Origin: an uncultured Gammaproteobacteria bacterium
GTDB lineage: Bacteria > Patescibacteriota > Patescibacteriia > Patescibacteriales > UBA12465
DNA: 64,000 nt
Reading direction: 5' to 3'
NCBI GenBank assembly: GCA_964616855.1
Contig: CAZTUJ010000001.1
Span: forward strand, 524,784 to 588,783
The notes beneath the pieces were generated by a model. The model was not told the origin of the DNA. It searched no databases and worked only from the letters and a program-made list of their open reading frames with translations. The translations under genes were made by a program, and so were the position numbers. This document shows, in pieces, positions 15,872-58,193 of this stretch. Positions within the stretch are counted from its first letter, which is position 1. Each line of letters begins with the position of its first letter.

Positions 15872-15900
15872 TTGACAAAATAAAAAAATAGTATTGTAAT
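15872..15900 (+). promoter_or_regulatory. Promoter of the 15937 membrane-protein gene
   Basis: TTGACA (15872..15877), 17-nt spacer, TGTAAT (15895..15900). Confidence 0.5.
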
Positions 15901-15936
15901 GGAAGCACGTCAAACCTTCATTAAAAACCAAAAAAG

Positions 15937-16452
15937 ATGAGCAAAAAAGCAATTCACCGTCTTTGGCAGCGCCTGCTAATTTTGTCCGTAATGGCCGCCT
16001 TATTCCTGATGATCCTCCAATCGGCCCATAAGCCGATATTAATCTTTAACTGGATTATAATCATGCTGATGTTTTGTAATTTCTGGTATGGCCAAAATAA
16101 AGAAAGTAGCATCTCCTTCTTTATTGGGATGCTGATGATGGCAATACTGATGGTGATATCAATACTAAGCTTCATCGGCTGGCTCTTCAACGTCGCCATG
16201 TTTAATGGCTTCTGGGGAAAAATATTCGGCTGGCCGAGCTTAGCCTGGGCATTCATTATAGCTATGTATTCTATGTTCATGCTCGACAAAGAGATGCATG
16301 AAGATATTAAGCGCGCTTGCCGGGAAAAAATAAAGGAACACGCCCCTTTAATAATAAGCGTTTCCCTCGTAATACTCCTCGCCGCCCTGGCGATTGCTAA
16401 ATGGGAAAACATATCTGAAACTTATTCATCAATAAGAAATTGCTTCCCATGA
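15937..16452 (+). CDS. Hypothetical integral membrane protein
   Basis: 171 aa with about 5 hydrophobic helices. A promoter lies upstream and a terminator downstream. The antisense ORF 15954..16412 is treated as a shadow. Confidence 0.5.
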   Translation: MSKKAIHRLWQRLLILSVMAALFLMILQSAHKPILIFNWIIIMLMFCNFWYGQNKESSISFFIGMLMMAILMVISILSFIGWLFNVAMFNGFWGKIFGWPSLAWAFIIAMYSMFMLDKEMHEDIKRACREKIKEHAPLIISVSLVILLAALAIAKWENISETYSSIRNCFP

Positions 16453-52171: not shown

Positions 52172-53422
52172 TTAATAGGAATGGTCGCAGAGGCCGTCTT
52201 GATTATTATCAACATATAAACCGCAATCTCCCGGAAATTCACAATCTTTAGTCCGGGAAGGACAATCGGCTTGGCTGGCGTTAGGATCGTAATTGCTGAC
52301 TACTTGCCGAAAATCTTCCGTCTCTAAAATAAGCCCGTCTTTATTATATAAATTATAAGTCGGGCCAATATCTTTAAGCTTCAACGAAATATCAACCTTT
52401 AAAGGTAAAGATAACTTTTTCTGAAACTCAGCTAAAGGCACTCCCGTAACCTCAATTAAATAGGCTAAAGTATTACTCCCTCTGATATCGGCGACATTGA
52501 TTTCACCCTGGACATTAACAATATTTGATTCTGGCTTTGTCTGCCAAAAAGGGGTGAAGGGGGCAATAATCAAGGGCAGGGCCACTAATAATACCACCAA
52601 CCAAGAAAAAAGCCTTTTGGAAATAGGATGACCAAAAATGTAGAAACTAAGGCTATCTTTGGGGCAATCACTAATACAACGGCCACAACTAATACAGTCA
52701 GCATCCTTAATTTCTTTAGCCGTCGCAATCTGTAAATTAGCGGGACATTGACGGTCACACAAGGAACAACTAATACAAGAAGATTCTTCCCTTTTGATTT
52801 TTAAAAACCCTATCTTTTTAAAGATAGCGAAAAAAGCACCTAAAGGACAAAGATAGCGGCACCACCAGCTCTTGGAAAATAAAGCACTTATTAAAAAAAT
52901 AAAAAGTAAAAGGTAGGCAACAATTTTTTCTTCAAATTCAAGACCTAAATGCATCAAAGCTGAATAAGGGTCATAGTTACGAAAAATTAAATCTCCTAAA
53001 TAAAAAGAAAAATAAACGACGATGATTAAAACAAGATATTTTAAATAACGCAGATACTTATCCACCCCTGCCGGCAATTCCCAATCTTTTCTAAAGCCCA
53101 GCTTCTTTCCTAAAAAACGTAACCATTCTTGCAGGGCTCCGAAAGGACAAAAATATCCACAAAACACTCGACCAAAAAATAAAGTGGCCACTAAAAAGAT
53201 GCCCATTAAAATAAAGGAGCTGGTAAAAATACGTTTCAAAAACTCACCTTTAAAAATTAAAGTAAAAAAACTCTCCACCGCTCCAAATGGACAATAGGCG
53301 TCAACGGGAGCAGCTTTTTCAATGCCCAATTTTTGATGGATGATGGCTAGAGTAAAAACAGTAACGACAATAGAGAGTTGAACAAAAAACCTTAAAGAGA
53401 ATTTAAACGGCATTTTTTTCAT
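52172..53422 (-). CDS. Polytopic 4Fe-4S ferredoxin-type membrane protein (NapH/MauN-like)
   Basis: 416 aa. Repeated CxxFCPxGA TM-adjacent motifs, two CxxCxxCxxxCP clusters and a Cys-rich C-terminal soluble domain. Confidence 0.75.
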   Translation of the reverse strand: MKKMPFKFSLRFFVQLSIVVTVFTLAIIHQKLGIEKAAPVDAYCPFGAVESFFTLIFKGEFLKRIFTSSFILMGIFLVATLFFGRVFCGYFCPFGALQEWLRFLGKKLGFRKDWELPAGVDKYLRYLKYLVLIIVVYFSFYLGDLIFRNYDPYSALMHLGLEFEEKIVAYLLLFIFLISALFSKSWWCRYLCPLGAFFAIFKKIGFLKIKREESSCISCSLCDRQCPANLQIATAKEIKDADCISCGRCISDCPKDSLSFYIFGHPISKRLFSWLVVLLVALPLIIAPFTPFWQTKPESNIVNVQGEINVADIRGSNTLAYLIEVTGVPLAEFQKKLSLPLKVDISLKLKDIGPTYNLYNKDGLILETEDFRQVVSNYDPNASQADCPSRTKDCEFPGDCGLYVDNNQDGLCDHSY

Positions 53423-53509: not shown

Positions 53510-54265
53510 CTAAGCCTCAAACTCACAGATTAGGGGTAAGTGGTCGGAGACATCCACGTCTGGGCAAGAAGATTTAAGCACCTTGATGTCCGGGCTGGCA
53601 AAGATAAAGTCCACGGCAAAGTCAGCAAACTTCGGATTCTGCTTCTGGCGGAGATTGAAAGTGCTAGAAAGTCGCCCGGAAAAAACATTAACGAGTTGAG
53701 CTTCAATATTGGCAATCGTTTTGGTGCCGGGGACAACATTTAAATCCCCACCTAAAATCACTCTTTCTCGACCCTTAACTTGTTTAACGATAGTTTGGCT
53801 CATCTGCAGTCGACGCTCACTGTCTTCATCATTGCAAGCCCAGATACCCTGAGTATTGAAAATCTGATAGCTCTGATTATCAATCAACACCGAAGCCCGC
53901 TGGAGATTACGGGGGCTAAGAGTATGATCAGCACTCACATCCTCATAGTGAGGCACACTAGTAAAAGGCTGATCAAAAAAGATGGTCTCCGTTTCTTGAA
54001 AAGGAAAGCGAGACAAGATGGCGTTACCAAATTCCACGCCCGCCCCCGGAAAGAAGCCGGCCGGAGAAAAAAAGACGAAAGGCAGAGATAGAGCCTTCTG
54101 AATAAGAGCTAAGGAACGGAAGCGCTCTTCTAAAGCTAAATCAGTACCGCTATAGGCTTCCTGTAAAATTAAAATATCCGGCTCTTCCTGCCGGAGAAAG
54201 TCGAGGATATTGGGCAATAATTTGCCGCCCAACCAGAGATTGAGGGAAACTAATTTGAAAGACAT
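53510..54265 (-). CDS. Endonuclease/exonuclease/phosphatase (EEP) family protein
   Basis: 251 aa. N-terminal LNLW..., LILQE, GDLN and a C-terminal SDHLP motif. Confidence 0.85.
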   Translation of the reverse strand: MSFKLVSLNLWLGGKLLPNILDFLRQEEPDILILQEAYSGTDLALEERFRSLALIQKALSLPFVFFSPAGFFPGAGVEFGNAILSRFPFQETETIFFDQPFTSVPHYEDVSADHTLSPRNLQRASVLIDNQSYQIFNTQGIWACNDEDSERRLQMSQTIVKQVKGRERVILGGDLNVVPGTKTIANIEAQLVNVFSGRLSSTFNLRQKQNPKFADFAVDFIFASPDIKVLKSSCPDVDVSDHLPLICEFEA

Positions 54266-54308
54266 AAAAGGATAATTATAAAATCCATACTAGCAGATAT
54301 GAGCTAAA

Positions 54309-54340
54309 TTGACAAAAATAAAAATATTTGTGATATTATA
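54309..54340 (+). promoter_or_regulatory. Promoter of PurN-like gene 1 (copy A of a duplicated 32-bp element)
   Basis: TTGACA (54309..54314), 17-nt spacer ending in TGT, then GATATT (extended -10). 31/32 identical to 55105..55136. Confidence 0.55.
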
Positions 54341-54379
54341 AAGCTCACTAAAGACGCACCTTCAAAAACAGCAAGAACA

Positions 54380-55039
54380 ATGAAAAAAAGAATCTTAGTC
54401 TTTGCTTCCGGCGATAAGATCGGCGGGGGCTCTGGTTTCCAGGAAATGGTCGAAAGATCAAGAACAAAGCCGGCAATCTTAGATGCCGAAATTGTGGCCG
54501 TAGTCTGCAATTATGAACACGGCGGTGTTTGGGAAAGAGCTCATCAGCTCGAAGTACCCTTCATCTACTTCCCCGGCCCCTATACGGCTGAAACCTACCA
54601 AAAAATCTTTGAAGAAAGTAAGGCCGACTACGTAATGTGCTCAGGCTGGAAAAAAAAGGTTTTCGGTTTAAAGGAAAATTTAACCATTAATATTCATCCC
54701 GGTCCCTTGCCCCGCTTCGGTGGTAAAGGCATGTACGGACGCAATGTCCACGAAGCCGTAATCAAAGCCTATCGCCGGGGAGAAATCCAACAGAGTGCCG
54801 TTTGCATCCACTTCGTTAACCCAGATTATGATAAAGGGGCGGGCATCGTGCAGATACCGGTTACCATCAGGCACAATGACAGCGCCGAGACTTTAGCGGA
54901 GAGAGTGCTGAAGGTAGAGCATATCTACCAGAGCATCATCTTAAACGAAATCGTGCACAGAAGAATTATCCTCAACAAGTTGGGAAACGTTCTCTTTGAA
55001 AACGAAGAACTCTTCCGCTTCGCCTTCACTAACGAATAG
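54380..55039 (+). CDS. PurN-like formyltransferase (catalytic residues retained)
   Basis: 219 aa. ILVFASGDKIGGGSGFQ (GAR-loop-like), INIHPGPLPRFGG (N-x-H motif) and HFVNPDYDKGAGIVQ (Asp retained). Confidence 0.7.
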   Translation: MKKRILVFASGDKIGGGSGFQEMVERSRTKPAILDAEIVAVVCNYEHGGVWERAHQLEVPFIYFPGPYTAETYQKIFEESKADYVMCSGWKKKVFGLKENLTINIHPGPLPRFGGKGMYGRNVHEAVIKAYRRGEIQQSAVCIHFVNPDYDKGAGIVQIPVTIRHNDSAETLAERVLKVEHIYQSIILNEIVHRRIILNKLGNVLFENEELFRFAFTNE

Positions 55040-55054
55040 CAAAGATTAAGATTC

Positions 55055-55086
55055 AAAAAGGCAGTAATACACTGCCTTTTTGTTTT
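55055..55086 (+). terminator. Terminator of PurN-like gene 1
   Basis: AAAAAGGCAG-7 nt-CUGCCUUUUUGUUUU. Confidence 0.75.
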
Positions 55087-55104
55087 GGCTGATTTTTATG
55101 ATAA

Positions 55105-55136
55105 TTGACAAAGATAAAAATATTTGTGATATTATA
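55105..55136 (+). promoter_or_regulatory. Promoter of PurN-like gene 2 (copy B)
   Basis: Same TTGACA-N17-GATATT element, 31/32 identical to copy A. Confidence 0.55.
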
Positions 55137-55173
55137 ATTCCAGTAAATAGCACCTTCTAAACTTAATATTATC

Positions 55174-55821
55174 ATGAAAAAAAGAATCCTGATTTTTAGC
55201 GCCGATACTAAAATCGGCAGTGAATGCTTTGAAAGCATCGTTGAGGCCACCAAAACTAATCCGCCGGTATTAAAAGCGGAAATTGGCGGCATTGTCTCTG
55301 CCACGGCTAACGGCTGTATCCAGAAAAAGGCCGAACGCCTAAAAATACCCTTTATCTACTTCCCCGGCCCCTATACGGCTGAAAGCTACCAACAAATTTT
55401 TGAAGACAGCCAGGCCAACTACGCTATTTCCACAGGCTGGACCAAAAAGATTATCGGTATTGAAGACAACCTTGCCATCAACACCACCCTCGGGCCGCTG
55501 CCTGATTGCGCCGGCCAATATGGCAAAAAAATGCAAAGAAACATCATCACCATGTGGCGCCAGAAAAAAATCAAACAGAGCGCCATCTCTATTCACTTTA
55601 TTAACAAGGACTACAACAAGGGGGCGGGTATTATCCAAATCCCAGTATCCATCAGACCAGATGACACTGAAGACACGCTGCTGATAAGAGCAGCTAAAAC
55701 CTCCCATTACTATCAAATTGCGGTCATGAACGAAATCATAAAAGGCCGGATTTATTTAGTGAATGAACATCACACCTTCATCCACAATAAAGAATTAGGA
55801 CGGTTCGCTTTTCATGGATAA
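55174..55821 (+). CDS. PurN-like paralog lacking the catalytic His/Asp (probable pseudoenzyme)
   Basis: 215 aa, clearly alignable to gene 1 over its full length. It has INTTLGPLPDCAG instead of INIHPGPLP, DYNKGAG instead of DYDKGAG, and a degenerate G-rich loop (FSADTKIGSECFES). Confidence 0.65.
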   Translation: MKKRILIFSADTKIGSECFESIVEATKTNPPVLKAEIGGIVSATANGCIQKKAERLKIPFIYFPGPYTAESYQQIFEDSQANYAISTGWTKKIIGIEDNLAINTTLGPLPDCAGQYGKKMQRNIITMWRQKKIKQSAISIHFINKDYNKGAGIIQIPVSIRPDDTEDTLLIRAAKTSHYYQIAVMNEIIKGRIYLVNEHHTFIHNKELGRFAFHG

Positions 55822-55837
55822 AAGAACTAAAACAAAG

Positions 55838-55866
55838 AAAAAAGGCAGCCACAGGACTGCCTTTTT
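55838..55866. terminator. Bidirectional terminator (PurN-like gene 2 / PEP-mobile-domain gene)
   Basis: AAAAAAGGCAG-8 nt-CUGCCUUUUU. The stem sequence resembles the terminator at 55055..55086. Confidence 0.7.
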
Positions 55867-55887
55867 ACTTTGTCTATTTATAGAAAA

Positions 55888-57177
55888 TCAATTTAAGATT
55901 TTTATAATCCCTTGATCAGCATCAACTTCCACCTCGTCACCGTCTTTTAAGACCTTAGTAGCAATCTTGGTGCCAATAATACAGGGGGTGCTTATTTCCC
56001 TCGCCACTACCGCCGCATGGCACAAGAGCCCGCCGATATCAGTTACAATTGCCCTAGCATTTTTCATTAAAAACAAAAAATCGGGAGTGGTCATGGTCGA
56101 TACCAAAATATTTCCTTTTTTAAACTTATCAAAATCTTTTAAAGAGGCGATAATACTCACCTTGCCGCGAACACATCCTGGGAAAGCCGTGGTACCTTTA
56201 ATTTCGGCTTGACCGCGACCAGGTGTCGGAGCAAACAAGTCGGCTATTTTTTTAATTAACTTTCTATCAGTAATAAAATGAGCCAAATTATTATGCCGCA
56301 TTAATAACCAATTACTTTTAATCGCTTTATAGCCCCCTTCTTTTTTTAACATGCCACCAATAACATCAGCGGGTGCCTGCAGCATCATCTCATATGTTAT
56401 TCCAATCTTTTTACACACTTTCTTTAATAAAGGATAGTGTAAATAAGTACACTTAGAAAAATATTCAGAGCTAGCCTGCTTAGTATAGCCCATCAGGGCG
56501 AATAACTTTAAAAACTCTTTGATCTCTTGAGGTAATTTATTATATTCTGACTTTCTGGCACCAGTGCTTTTCGAAATATCTTTTAAATCCTGTATAGTGA
56601 CCGGGGTAACAATAAAATTAGCGGTTTTAATCCAGGCATATTCACTCCTGATATCTTTAAGGCTGGATGAATGATGTAATTTTTTCTCTAAGGCAAATAA
56701 AGGTGTCTTTATTTTAGGCACCGCCTGCATATATCTCACACTTTCTTCCTTAGAAAATCTTTCCTTCCAAACCAATTCAAAGGCCTCGTTAATAAATACC
56801 GCCACCACCCACAGAGACATAATTCTTTTAGCTCTGACTAAAAACTGCTCATAGGCATTTACCAAATTAGTATCAGTTACCACCCGAGAATTATCCTCTA
56901 ATATCTTTTTCACTTTCTTATTCCAACTATTCCAAAAATCAATATTATTAGCCACAATCCATCTTTTCATTTTCTGTGTCTCTTTATCATTAACAATAAC
57001 ATAGCCGTTATTAAAAAATACGATCGCGTCCTCTTTAATTGGCACCCGCAGAGTATTAAACAATTCCTCATCAAACCAGTCAATCCAAAAAGACGCAGAA
57101 AAAATATCCTGAGGCCAAAAACCTAAAAAATACCAATCTTTTTTATTTATTTTTAGCAAGGCTTCTTTGGCGTTCAT
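55888..57177 (-). CDS. Protein with a C-terminal PEP-utilizing-enzyme mobile (phosphohistidine swivel) domain and an unassigned N-terminal region
   Basis: 429 aa. The last ~90 aa (GKVSIIASLKDFDKFKKGNILVSTMTTPDFLFLMKNARAIVTDIGGLLCHAAVVAREISTPCIIG) are a swivel domain with the conserved His. I did not recognise the first ~330 aa. Confidence 0.65.
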   Translation of the reverse strand: MNAKEALLKINKKDWYFLGFWPQDIFSASFWIDWFDEELFNTLRVPIKEDAIVFFNNGYVIVNDKETQKMKRWIVANNIDFWNSWNKKVKKILEDNSRVVTDTNLVNAYEQFLVRAKRIMSLWVVAVFINEAFELVWKERFSKEESVRYMQAVPKIKTPLFALEKKLHHSSSLKDIRSEYAWIKTANFIVTPVTIQDLKDISKSTGARKSEYNKLPQEIKEFLKLFALMGYTKQASSEYFSKCTYLHYPLLKKVCKKIGITYEMMLQAPADVIGGMLKKEGGYKAIKSNWLLMRHNNLAHFITDRKLIKKIADLFAPTPGRGQAEIKGTTAFPGCVRGKVSIIASLKDFDKFKKGNILVSTMTTPDFLFLMKNARAIVTDIGGLLCHAAVVAREISTPCIIGTKIATKVLKDGDEVEVDADQGIIKILN

Positions 57178-57236
57178 AGATTTAGACCAACATGAATAAA
57201 GAGATTATAAAAGATAATTTGAATTAGCTCTGGATG

Positions 57237-58193
57237 CTACCAGCAAGTATTTACCTCTGCACCAATCTTATCCATTAAATATTCCTCAACTTCATAAATT
57301 CCACCGATTCTGTCTATCAAACCATTATCTAAAGCCATTTGCGCGGGCATTGAGGCTCCATCCGCTAAAGCTCTTACTTTATTTATATCTAAGTTGCGAT
57401 CATTAGCAACAGTTTTAATAAAGTTTTCATTAACAATATTTATATCTCTCATTAATAAAGCTCTTTCCTCCTCCGTTAACTCTTTATTAGGATTAGTATA
57501 ATCTTTAAATTTACCAGTACTTAATGAGTTATAGGTTAGACCATCCTCATTGTTCTTGGCGGAATTATCTAAATAGGACATGGTTACACCAATACTACCA
57601 ATATCTGAAGAAGGAGAAGCAAAAATAATATCACCCCCAACAGCGGACCAATAAGCAGCCGAGTTAGCGGCTGAGCGCACCATCACCACGACCGGCTTAG
57701 TAACTTTGTGAAGGGCTTTATTAACTTCTTCAGCGGCAACAGGTGTTCCTCCGTAAGAATCAACTTCTAAAATAACGGCTTTAATAGCATCATCCGATTC
57801 CGCCTCATTGAGGGCATAAATTATATATTCGGAAGCGGTCTCATCAATTAATGACAGGCCTTCTGTATTTTCGTTCTCAGGAACAATATAAGTAACTAAA
57901 TCACCATGCAATTCAATACCGCTCACATTGCAAATATCTTCATCCATATTACTTTCGTCTAAAATTTCCTCATCCGAATATTCTTCGTCGGTAGACCAGT
58001 AACCGACACCAAACTGATATTCATATTCATCCTTAACAATAATGAAAGCTCCTAAAAAAATAATCAGAAAGGCTAGGCCTCTGATTACTTTTTTAAATGA
58101 CAGCTTCTTCCATTTTTTTGGATTAAACCTTGAATAATTAATCTTAAATTTAGCAACTTTAAAAAATAATATCTTTTTTATAAGATTGTTCAT
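57237..58193 (-). CDS. sppA: Signal peptide peptidase SppA (S49 family), membrane-anchored
   Basis: 318 aa. N-terminal TM, ClpP/crotonase fold with SYGGTPVAAEE and SAAYW motifs, and SIGV. Confidence 0.8.
   Translation of the reverse strand: MNNLIKKILFFKVAKFKINYSRFNPKKWKKLSFKKVIRGLAFLIIFLGAFIIVKDEYEYQFGVGYWSTDEEYSDEEILDESNMDEDICNVSGIELHGDLVTYIVPENENTEGLSLIDETASEYIIYALNEAESDDAIKAVILEVDSYGGTPVAAEEVNKALHKVTKPVVVMVRSAANSAAYWSAVGGDIIFASPSSDIGSIGVTMSYLDNSAKNNEDGLTYNSLSTGKFKDYTNPNKELTEEERALLMRDINIVNENFIKTVANDRNLDINKVRALADGASMPAQMALDNGLIDRIGGIYEVEEYLMDKIGAEVNTCW

Follow-up and report, generated by a model that had tools for sequence, protein, structure and literature searches.

A 64,000-nucleotide stretch of DNA (the window) from an uncultured bacterium placed by GTDB in the Patescibacteriota (GenBank assembly GCA_964616855.1, contig CAZTUJ010000001.1, positions 524,784 to 588,783) carries two plus-strand open reading frames (ORFs) head to tail among minus-strand genes. 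Public databases label both of them PurN, the name of the glycinamide ribonucleotide (GAR) transformylase of the purine pathway. The first gene, copy 1 (54380..55039, plus strand), encodes a catalytically complete, divergent PurN-like formyltransferase of 219 amino acids. The second gene, copy 2 (55174..55821, plus strand), encodes a 215-amino-acid paralog of the PurN fold without the catalytic residues, and all of its alleles are under purifying selection. We consider it rather probable (about 0.6) that copy 2 is a retained noncatalytic or repurposed PurN paralog, i.e., a pseudoenzyme, which is accessory to copy 1. The scope of this finding is one species-level clade, in which copy 2 is a real, lineage-restricted pseudoenzyme candidate, and the host genome is only about 0.6 Mb in size (626,278-bp contig), where a useless gene is unexpected.

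Catalytic residues and fold of the two copies

The two proteins align end to end in BLASTP, with a sequence identity of 48% over 216 residues and an E value of 1e-76. An earlier annotation made from the nucleotide sequence (the original prediction) had described them as adjacent PurN-fold genes that align over their full length, and this was borne out, for copy 1 by its match to PF00551 (Formyl_trans_N; 62.4 bits against a cutoff of 26.1) and for copy 2 by its AlphaFold model. Against TIGR00639, the PurN model with an equivalog cutoff of 150.1 bits, the scores are 72.7 bits for copy 1 and 31.4 bits for copy 2, both under the cutoff. The best structure matches of copy 1 are bacterial and human GAR transformylases. 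Residue equivalence was taken from direct HMMER alignments to PurN chains in the PDB, with 3p9x and 3tqr as the chains aligned to copy 2. In copy 1, NIHPG aligns with NIHPS, the D-K-G of DYDKG with the D-T-G of PurN, and VEH with VEH. The Asn-x-His motif and the downstream Asp that had been proposed for copy 1 are thus in place, and its catalytic set consists of Asn104-Ile-His106 (54689-54697) and Asp151 (54830-54832), together with Glu180. Asn104, His106, and Asp151 are the counterparts of Asn106, His108, and Asp144 in E. coli PurN. Among 58 catalytic-type members of the family, 93 positions have a conservation of 90% or more, and copy 1 is off consensus at only 2 of them. Its glycine-rich loop, GDKIGGGSGFQ, is 4 residues longer than in PurN, and the loop-helix that follows HPGPLP is 8 residues longer. 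In PurN structures, GAR is presumably bound by the phosphate loop (G-x-G-S-N type), by the His, and by the ribose-binding Glu of VEH. The catalytic residues of Escherichia coli PurN are His108 and Asp144 (PMC3261824).

Copy 2 scores 23.3 bits against PF00551, which is below the cutoff of 26.1, and its match covers the C-terminal part only. In the alignments to the PDB chains, INTTLG stands opposite VNIHPS with Thr in place of His (Asn103-Thr-Thr, 55480-55488), DYNKGAG stands opposite GMDTGPI with Asn in place of Asp (Asn148, 55615-55617), and KTSH stands opposite AVEH with Ser in place of the Glu. In the family alignment, the glycine-rich loop reads KIGSECFE in place of IGGGSGFQ. The loss of His and Asp and the degeneration of this loop, as originally predicted, were therefore confirmed by both kinds of alignment. 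A structural shift of the two residues was also checked; they are replaced, not shifted, and the alignments to solved PurN chains contain no displaced His or Asp that would restore the motif. At the 93 conserved positions, copy 2 is off consensus 42 times, compared with 0 to 8 times (median of 2) in other members of the family. The changes are concentrated in the N-terminal loop (10/18) and in the Asn-x-His motif with the following loop-helix (13/21), and the folate-side loops are for the most part preserved (GW.KK and HF.N.DY.KGAGI.Q). For copy 2, an AlphaFold model based on an alignment of 60 sequences has a predicted local distance difference test (pLDDT) score of 94.7, and Foldseek matched it to human, E. 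coli, and other GAR transformylases with template modeling (TM) scores of 0.77 to 0.83 and a probability of 1.00, which argues that the fold is complete. As judged from its sequence, copy 2 is not to be filed as a PurN enzyme, since both His and Asp are replaced, and canonical His/Asp-assisted formyl transfer is predicted to be beyond it.

We investigated the family of copy 1 through its 2016 homologs with E values of 1e-5 or lower. They include proteins from Patescibacteria and Candidatus Falkowbacteria with 62 to 66% identity and proteins from Syntrophaceae, Thermodesulfobacteriota, and Deltaproteobacteria with about 58 to 61% identity. On a deltaproteobacterial contig, the homolog lies directly 5' of a large purL gene. 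PurL is the formylglycinamide ribonucleotide (FGAR) amidotransferase, which catalyzes the step after PurN in the purine pathway. With the deltaproteobacterial PurL as the tblastn query, purL was found to adjoin a family member directly in at least 10 independent loci, and one of these purL-adjacent members is 66% identical to copy 1. The adjacency in at least 10 loci suggests that the family is a genuine, divergent purN clade, and the clade of copy 1 is predicted to be a divergent PurN that is common to Patescibacteria and Syntrophia-type Deltaproteobacteria. Another of these loci (L069:3002-3165) retains just 33 codons of a truncated PurN-like gene (MKKRILVLATGEKTVELGGGSGFQEMVEFSRTNP...) directly ahead of a complete purL, which has 61% identity to the deltaproteobacterial one, and illustrates the loss of purN next to purL. 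In close candidate-phyla relatives, as in the window, the gene stands alone among unrelated genes, with no pur gene nearby, and lies on the strand opposite to that of its neighbors. Copy 1 would be the working folate-dependent GAR transformylase of this bacterium. A survey of candidate-phyla genomes reported that about one in three has a complete de novo purine module (PMC11608272), and finding purN here is therefore not odd in itself.

Selection on copy 2 and history of the pair

Orthologs of copy 2 were found at nine loci. They represent four alleles, all of them intact, with no stop codon or frameshift. The ratio of nonsynonymous to synonymous substitution rates (dN/dS), calculated by the Nei-Gojobori method, is 0.07 to 0.12 among the copy 2 alleles, with dS up to 0.41, while it is 0.09 to 0.24 for copy 1 and 0.04 to 0.15 for a neighboring phosphatase-family gene. 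The constraint on copy 2 is as strong as that on copy 1 and on the neighboring gene. Copy 2 of the window differs from that of locus L001 by 15 synonymous and 4 nonsynonymous changes and from that of L020 by 39 synonymous and 21 nonsynonymous changes. In a count-based binomial test, the corresponding ratio of proportions (pN/pS) is 0.07 to 0.15, and the P value for neutrality ranges from 1e-7 to 4e-15. The motifs NTTLG, DYNKG, KTS, and GSEC, which contain the replacement residues, are identical in all four alleles, and PDCAG and KTSH are likewise invariant. The proposal that copy 2 is retained and not decaying agrees with these results, i.e., ratios of 0.07 to 0.15 over four alleles and no stop or frameshift in nine assemblies. 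For copy 1, dN/dS is 0.089 in strains that have copy 1 only (L002 versus L005) and 0.15 to 0.24 in pair-bearing strains. The value of 0.089 without copy 2 indicates that copy 1 works without copy 2, and such constrained copy-1-only strains argue against the idea that copy 1 depends on copy 2 as a binding partner. When the window is compared with L001, the phosphatase-family gene (53510..54265) has a dS of 0.48 and copy 2 has one of only 0.12, which suggests a mosaic history of the locus, with recombination between strains.

The two copies differ from each other with a dN of 0.42 and a saturated dS of about 2.8. The duplication is therefore old, and a recent duplication was rejected. Two regions escape the divergence between the copies. 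One comprises the promoter and the first five codons, and the other is a tract at codons ~57 to 85 of copy 1 (54548..54634, plus strand; VPFIYFPGPYTAETYQKIFEE...) and codons ~56 to 84 of copy 2 (55339..55425, plus strand). Third-position identity between the copies is 0.8 to 0.93 in the tract and 0.13 to 0.4 elsewhere. Within the tract, dS has values of 0.32 (window), 0.53 (L017), and 1.23 (L020); outside the tract, it is saturated. Outgroup genes encode the same tract peptide with other codons, which suggests that the tract results from gene conversion and not from a universal nucleotide constraint; on this ground, the idea that nucleotide-level constraint keeps the coding tract identical was rejected. 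The original prediction had also inferred that the whole transcription unit was duplicated. The unit is indeed repeated, but the near-identity of the promoters cannot be read as a leftover of recent duplication, because the synonymous sites of the coding regions are saturated. Promoter identity and the coding tract are best ascribed to gene conversion and/or selection, not to recency.

We examined the distribution of copy 2 by several searches. A word-indexed search recovered orthologs only at 90% identity or above, in a single cluster of five sequences. In an exhaustive phmmer search over 1.84 billion cluster representatives, the identity of the hits dropped from 98% directly to 46%. Copy 2 is carried by one GTDB species representative, no match was found in JGI metagenomes, and the searches for wider orthologs returned none beyond one species-level clade. 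No second copy was present within 3 kb in any of 44 more distant family loci from JGI. Inside the clade, the pair is present in the window, in L016-L019, and in L020-L024, which amounts to 4 of the 7 distinct haplotypes. L001 has copy 2 only, and there the upstream flank of copy 1 switches to copy 2 sequence within the promoter repeat. L002/L003 and L005 have copy 1 only, and the sequence past the copy 1 terminator is the region that follows copy 2 in L020. The copy 2 promoter (55105..55137) corresponds to the right repeat of the deletion in L001, and the copy 1 terminator (55054..55082) corresponds to the left repeat in L002/L005. Since the junctions fall exactly in the promoter or terminator repeats, both single-gene states are explained as deletions between direct repeats. 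The window strain is the most divergent in the flanking gene, and it, L017, and L020 all have the pair, which suggests that the pair is ancestral to the clade. Conservation of the two genes as a pair thus holds within one species-level clade; it does not extend beyond it, and either copy can be deleted inside the clade. Copy 2 is predicted to be accessory, since some strains do without it and copy 1 does not require it.

Expression signals and surrounding genes

A 33-bp element, TTGACAAA[A/G]ATAAAAATATTTGTGATATTATAA, was found 5' of each copy. It scores as a promoter with a -35 TTGACA, a 17-bp spacer, and a TG-extended GATATT (TGT-GATATT). The copy 1 element (54309..54341, plus strand) has an A at position 9, in the spacer, and the copy 2 element (55105..55137, plus strand) has a G at this position; otherwise, the two are the same (32/33 identical). 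No third match with up to 3 mismatches was found in the 64-kb window and none in 100 shuffles, and the duplicated promoter element that had been predicted is therefore unique to the pair in the window. In 14 of 14 clade loci, an exact 33-mer precedes both genes, with the A/G difference between the copies fixed in all strains. From the -35 box to the ATG, each upstream region varies by 0 to 2 bases among strains, while the 44 bases just 5' of this promoter-leader stretch are about 18% different. The region upstream of copy 1 is near-invariant across strains, while dS in the coding region is 0.25 to 0.43. Near-invariance of promoter and leader next to a divergence of about 18% points to selection that maintains them, beyond what gene conversion alone would do. 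There was no support for a regulon-wide operator; both the 33-mer and the 15-nt inverted repeat at its core are confined to these two genes in the 64 kb.

The copy 1 leader (54342..54379, plus strand) is short and unstructured, with GCACCTTC at 54356-54363, 16 nt before the ATG, and no Shine-Dalgarno sequence. In the copy 2 leader (55138..55173, plus strand), GCACCTTC is found at 55150-55157, at the same distance of 16 nt from the ATG. Neither leader folds better than shuffled sequences do (z score of +1.0 for the copy 1 leader). A riboswitch or other structured leader was rejected, as Rfam gave no match near gathering scores in 54200-55950. In the window, 60 genes were checked for signals in the 50 nt before the ATG; none of them has GGAGG there, and 52% have ATAAT. 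Translation in this host apparently starts from very short A/T-rich leaders and does not use Shine-Dalgarno pairing. A motif, (G/A)(C/A)ACCTT(C/T/A)AA, lies about 13 to 21 nt before the start of PurN-like genes. It is shared by the two copies in the window, at exactly 16 nt, and by a number of distant relatives (L009, L014, L025, and L011), and it is found farther upstream in a deltaproteobacterium. It resembles an anti-Shine-Dalgarno sequence, not a Shine-Dalgarno sequence. A loosely similar layout, with TTGACAAAA, an A-rich spacer, and ACCTTC 17 nt before the ATG, is seen at 15873-15939 of the window, 5' of an ORF (15937..16452, plus strand) for a 171-amino-acid membrane protein with no Pfam match. 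The two sites may have a promoter/leader design in common, or the similarity may have arisen by chance in DNA that is rich in A/T.

Hairpin terminators follow both genes, with identical AAAAAGGCAG/CTGCCTTTTT stems and different loops, in agreement with the predicted terminator at the end of each gene. The copy 1 intrinsic terminator (55054..55082, plus strand) has a 12-pair stem followed by a T-run and is conserved in all clade loci. The copy 2 terminator (55839..55866) scores on both strands and is shared with a convergent gene (55888..57177) that ends at 55888. Its stem is GGCAG/CTGCC in the window and L020 and GGCGG/CCGCC in L001 and L017-L019, a compensatory double change which supports a functional hairpin.

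The convergent gene (55888..57177, minus strand), which sits 3' of the two copies in L017 as well as in the window, encodes a 429-amino-acid protein whose sole Pfam domain is a C-terminal phosphoenolpyruvate (PEP)-utilizing mobile domain (PF00391). Its N-terminal 350 residues have no Pfam match, and there is a weak PHROG match to a kinase. On the other side, the content of the interval from an SDR gene to the phosphatase-family gene (52172..53422) varies between strains. It holds a gene for a 4Fe-4S membrane protein in the window and L017, a 350-amino-acid IMPDH/GMP-reductase-like gene in L001, L002, L020, and L025, both genes in L009, and neither in L005. The region 3' of the PurN-like gene or genes is different in each strain (window 55888..58193, L001:6726-12146, L002:7412-12660, L020:7384-9832, and L025:12603-18529). 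In the relatives, it is rich in restriction/defense-type genes, including those for Mrr, a ResIII helicase, N6/N4 and C5 methylases, HEPN, AIPR, ICEA, an AAA_15 ATPase, and a MazG-like protein. The pair thus borders on a variable island, and this location may favor the observed recombination. A defense or phage origin of the pair was rejected, with 0 matches in PADLOC; in PHROGs, copy 1 alone has a match, to a cyanophage PurN auxiliary gene.

Readings of copy 2 and comparison with known systems

Under the reading that we prefer, copy 2 would be an old tandem paralog that has lost the His, the Asp, the glycine-rich loop for the GAR phosphate, and the Glu of VEH. Since it keeps the whole fold and most folate-side loops, it would have been kept as a noncatalytic or repurposed protein. 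With the same promoter on both genes, the two proteins are probably made together and in similar amounts, and copy 2 most likely acts by binding, not by catalysis. The losses fall on residues that we take to bind GAR, and the folate-side loops are like those of copy 1, so a folate or pterin ligand and a nonobligatory association with copy 1 are the candidates. Copy 2 could hold such a ligand, or it could associate in a nonessential way with copy 1 or another partner. The direct repeats of promoter and terminator would let recombination delete either gene and would allow patches of gene conversion.

Several observations weigh against this reading. Orthologs of copy 2 span only about 10% protein divergence, and the selection estimate covers a short time. 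The physiological role of copy 1 is deduced from its homologs; no purL was found in the 64-kb window by tblastn, and no pur gene is present in the 20 flanking genes scanned. L001 keeps copy 2 without copy 1 at the locus, which fits an independent role, although the deletion may be recent; the lineage-specific changes of copy 2 in L001 are only five synonymous and one nonsynonymous. Copy 2 also keeps the equivalent of Asn106 and a nearby Asp (KDYN) and has new Cys residues (GSEC and PDCAG), and some altered chemistry may be present.

We regard it as unlikely that copy 2 is a dedicated noncatalytic subunit of a heterodimer, of the prozyme type, which tunes the activity or stability of copy 1, with identical promoters giving matched expression and the converted tract keeping the interface compatible. 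Such a subunit would fit with the identical private promoter at both genes in all strains, with the presence of the pair in 4 of 7 haplotypes, and with the conversion tract, which covers a helix that we take to lie at the dimer interface of E. coli PurN (compare the monomeric mutant E70A; PDB 2GAR/3GAR). However, the constraint on copy 1 is, if anything, tighter in the copy-1-only strains (0.089) than in the pair-bearing strains (0.15 to 0.24), a copy-2-only strain exists (L001), and 44 of 44 more distant loci are single copy, which shows that the enzyme works alone.

Neofunctionalization, in which copy 2 would be an enzyme that uses the PurN scaffold for another acceptor or another chemistry, for example, through the new Cys residues of the two active-site loops, seems quite improbable to us. 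It is favored by purifying selection as strong as that on true enzymes, by the invariance of the replacement residues (NTTLG, GSEC, PDCAG, and KTSH), and by the retention of Asn106 and the folate-side loops. Nevertheless, there are no orthologs past one species-level clade, and the flanking genes scanned give no hint of a new pathway. Moreover, to our knowledge, the Asn/His/Asp set is used by every characterized enzyme of the formyltransferase fold. For PurN, the use of this set is documented (PMC3261824).

Finally, it is very improbable that copy 2 is a slowly decaying pseudogene or a neutral passenger. In favor of such a reading, its catalytic residues are lost, either copy is deletable, another degenerate member (P0122/P0275) has a homopolymer frameshift, and about 20 other cluster representatives of the subfamily are without His or Asp. 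Against it, copy 2 has a dN/dS of 0.07 to 0.15 with P values as low as 4e-15, its reading frame is free of stops and frameshifts in nine loci, and its own promoter, leader, and terminator are conserved, with a compensatory change in the terminator stem.

A retained noncatalytic paralog would carry a practical lesson for annotation, as the PurN label on both genes leads to an overcount of purine-pathway capacity in the genomes of candidate phyla. Dead enzymes that have been retained are a familiar finding in eukaryotes but are poorly cataloged in bacteria, and a literature search found no described pseudoenzyme of the PurN/formyltransferase fold. Only tentatively, and with some doubt on our side, copy 2 might be the first pseudoenzyme of this fold with a real job, as a folate-binding or PurN-associating modulator of one-carbon/purine metabolism in an ultrasmall bacterium; if so, the scattered PurN-subclade members without His or Asp would be an unrecognized functional class that arises recurrently. 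The close strains with both genes, with the active one only, or with the dead one only, whose junctions are resolved at the sequence level, provide natural controls, and these, together with the clear selection on the dead copy, make its function testable by simple biochemistry.

Members of this kind were seen elsewhere in the family. About 20 of about 250 sampled members of the PurN subclade are without the catalytic His and/or Asp (NIN, NIR, or NIY at the His motif, and Gly, Ser, Cys, or Asn for Asp), including P0129, P0136, P0152, P0164, P0170, P0175, P0190, P0193, P0199, and P0037. Loss of catalytic residues seems to be recurrent in this subclade and is perhaps a wider phenomenon, and the other cases may simply be decay. 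One of the degenerate genes, P0122/P0275, is found in another Patescibacteria genome (GCA_028692765.1; L008:489-1141, which equals L025:9968-10618), and its nucleotide sequence is identical in the L008 and L025 assemblies. It belongs to the same subfamily as copy 2 and has NICHGPFP at the His position, Asn for Asp (LNRGSG), and Gly for Glu (KTGY). In neighbor-joining trees, it groups with copy 2 in 199 to 200 of 200 bootstraps. In contrast to copy 2, it is a solo gene at a place where a relative (L009) has a normal copy, P0021, and a run of seven A's near its 5' end breaks the frame; one extra A would restore a full-length ORF. At 18 shared deviant positions, copy 2 and P0122 have different residues, and most of the identical changes are Val to Ile. 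On these grounds, convergent decay or long-branch attraction is as likely as orthology.

Among known systems, both copies share the single-domain fold of about 215 amino acids with E. coli PurN and the C-terminal domain of human GART. Copy 1 further shares with PurN the Asn-x-His motif, the Asp, and the VEH Glu, and members of its family adjoin purL; it differs from PurN in its score under the equivalog cutoff and in its longer glycine-rich loop and loop-helix. Copy 2 differs from PurN in having none of His, Asp, Glu, and loop, and it is below the Pfam cutoff. The hydrolase domain of PurU, the formyltetrahydrofolate (formyl-THF) deformylase, has a homologous fold and is the second-best match in NCBIfam and Foldseek. 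Neither copy has the N-terminal ACT domain of PurU, however, and the score is 40.8 bits against a cutoff of 285.95. PurU also requires the His/Asp pair, so copy 2 cannot be a PurU-type hydrolase. The closest parallels in kind are HisZ, an inactive paralog of HisRS that regulates HisG, and the prozyme of trypanosomatid S-adenosylmethionine decarboxylase (AdoMetDC), a dead paralog that arose by duplication adjoining the active gene. Like these proteins, copy 2 would be an inactive paralog of a metabolic enzyme that is retained under selection. HisZ and the prozyme are required for the full activity of their active enzymes, whereas copy 1 persists under constraint in strains that lack copy 2.

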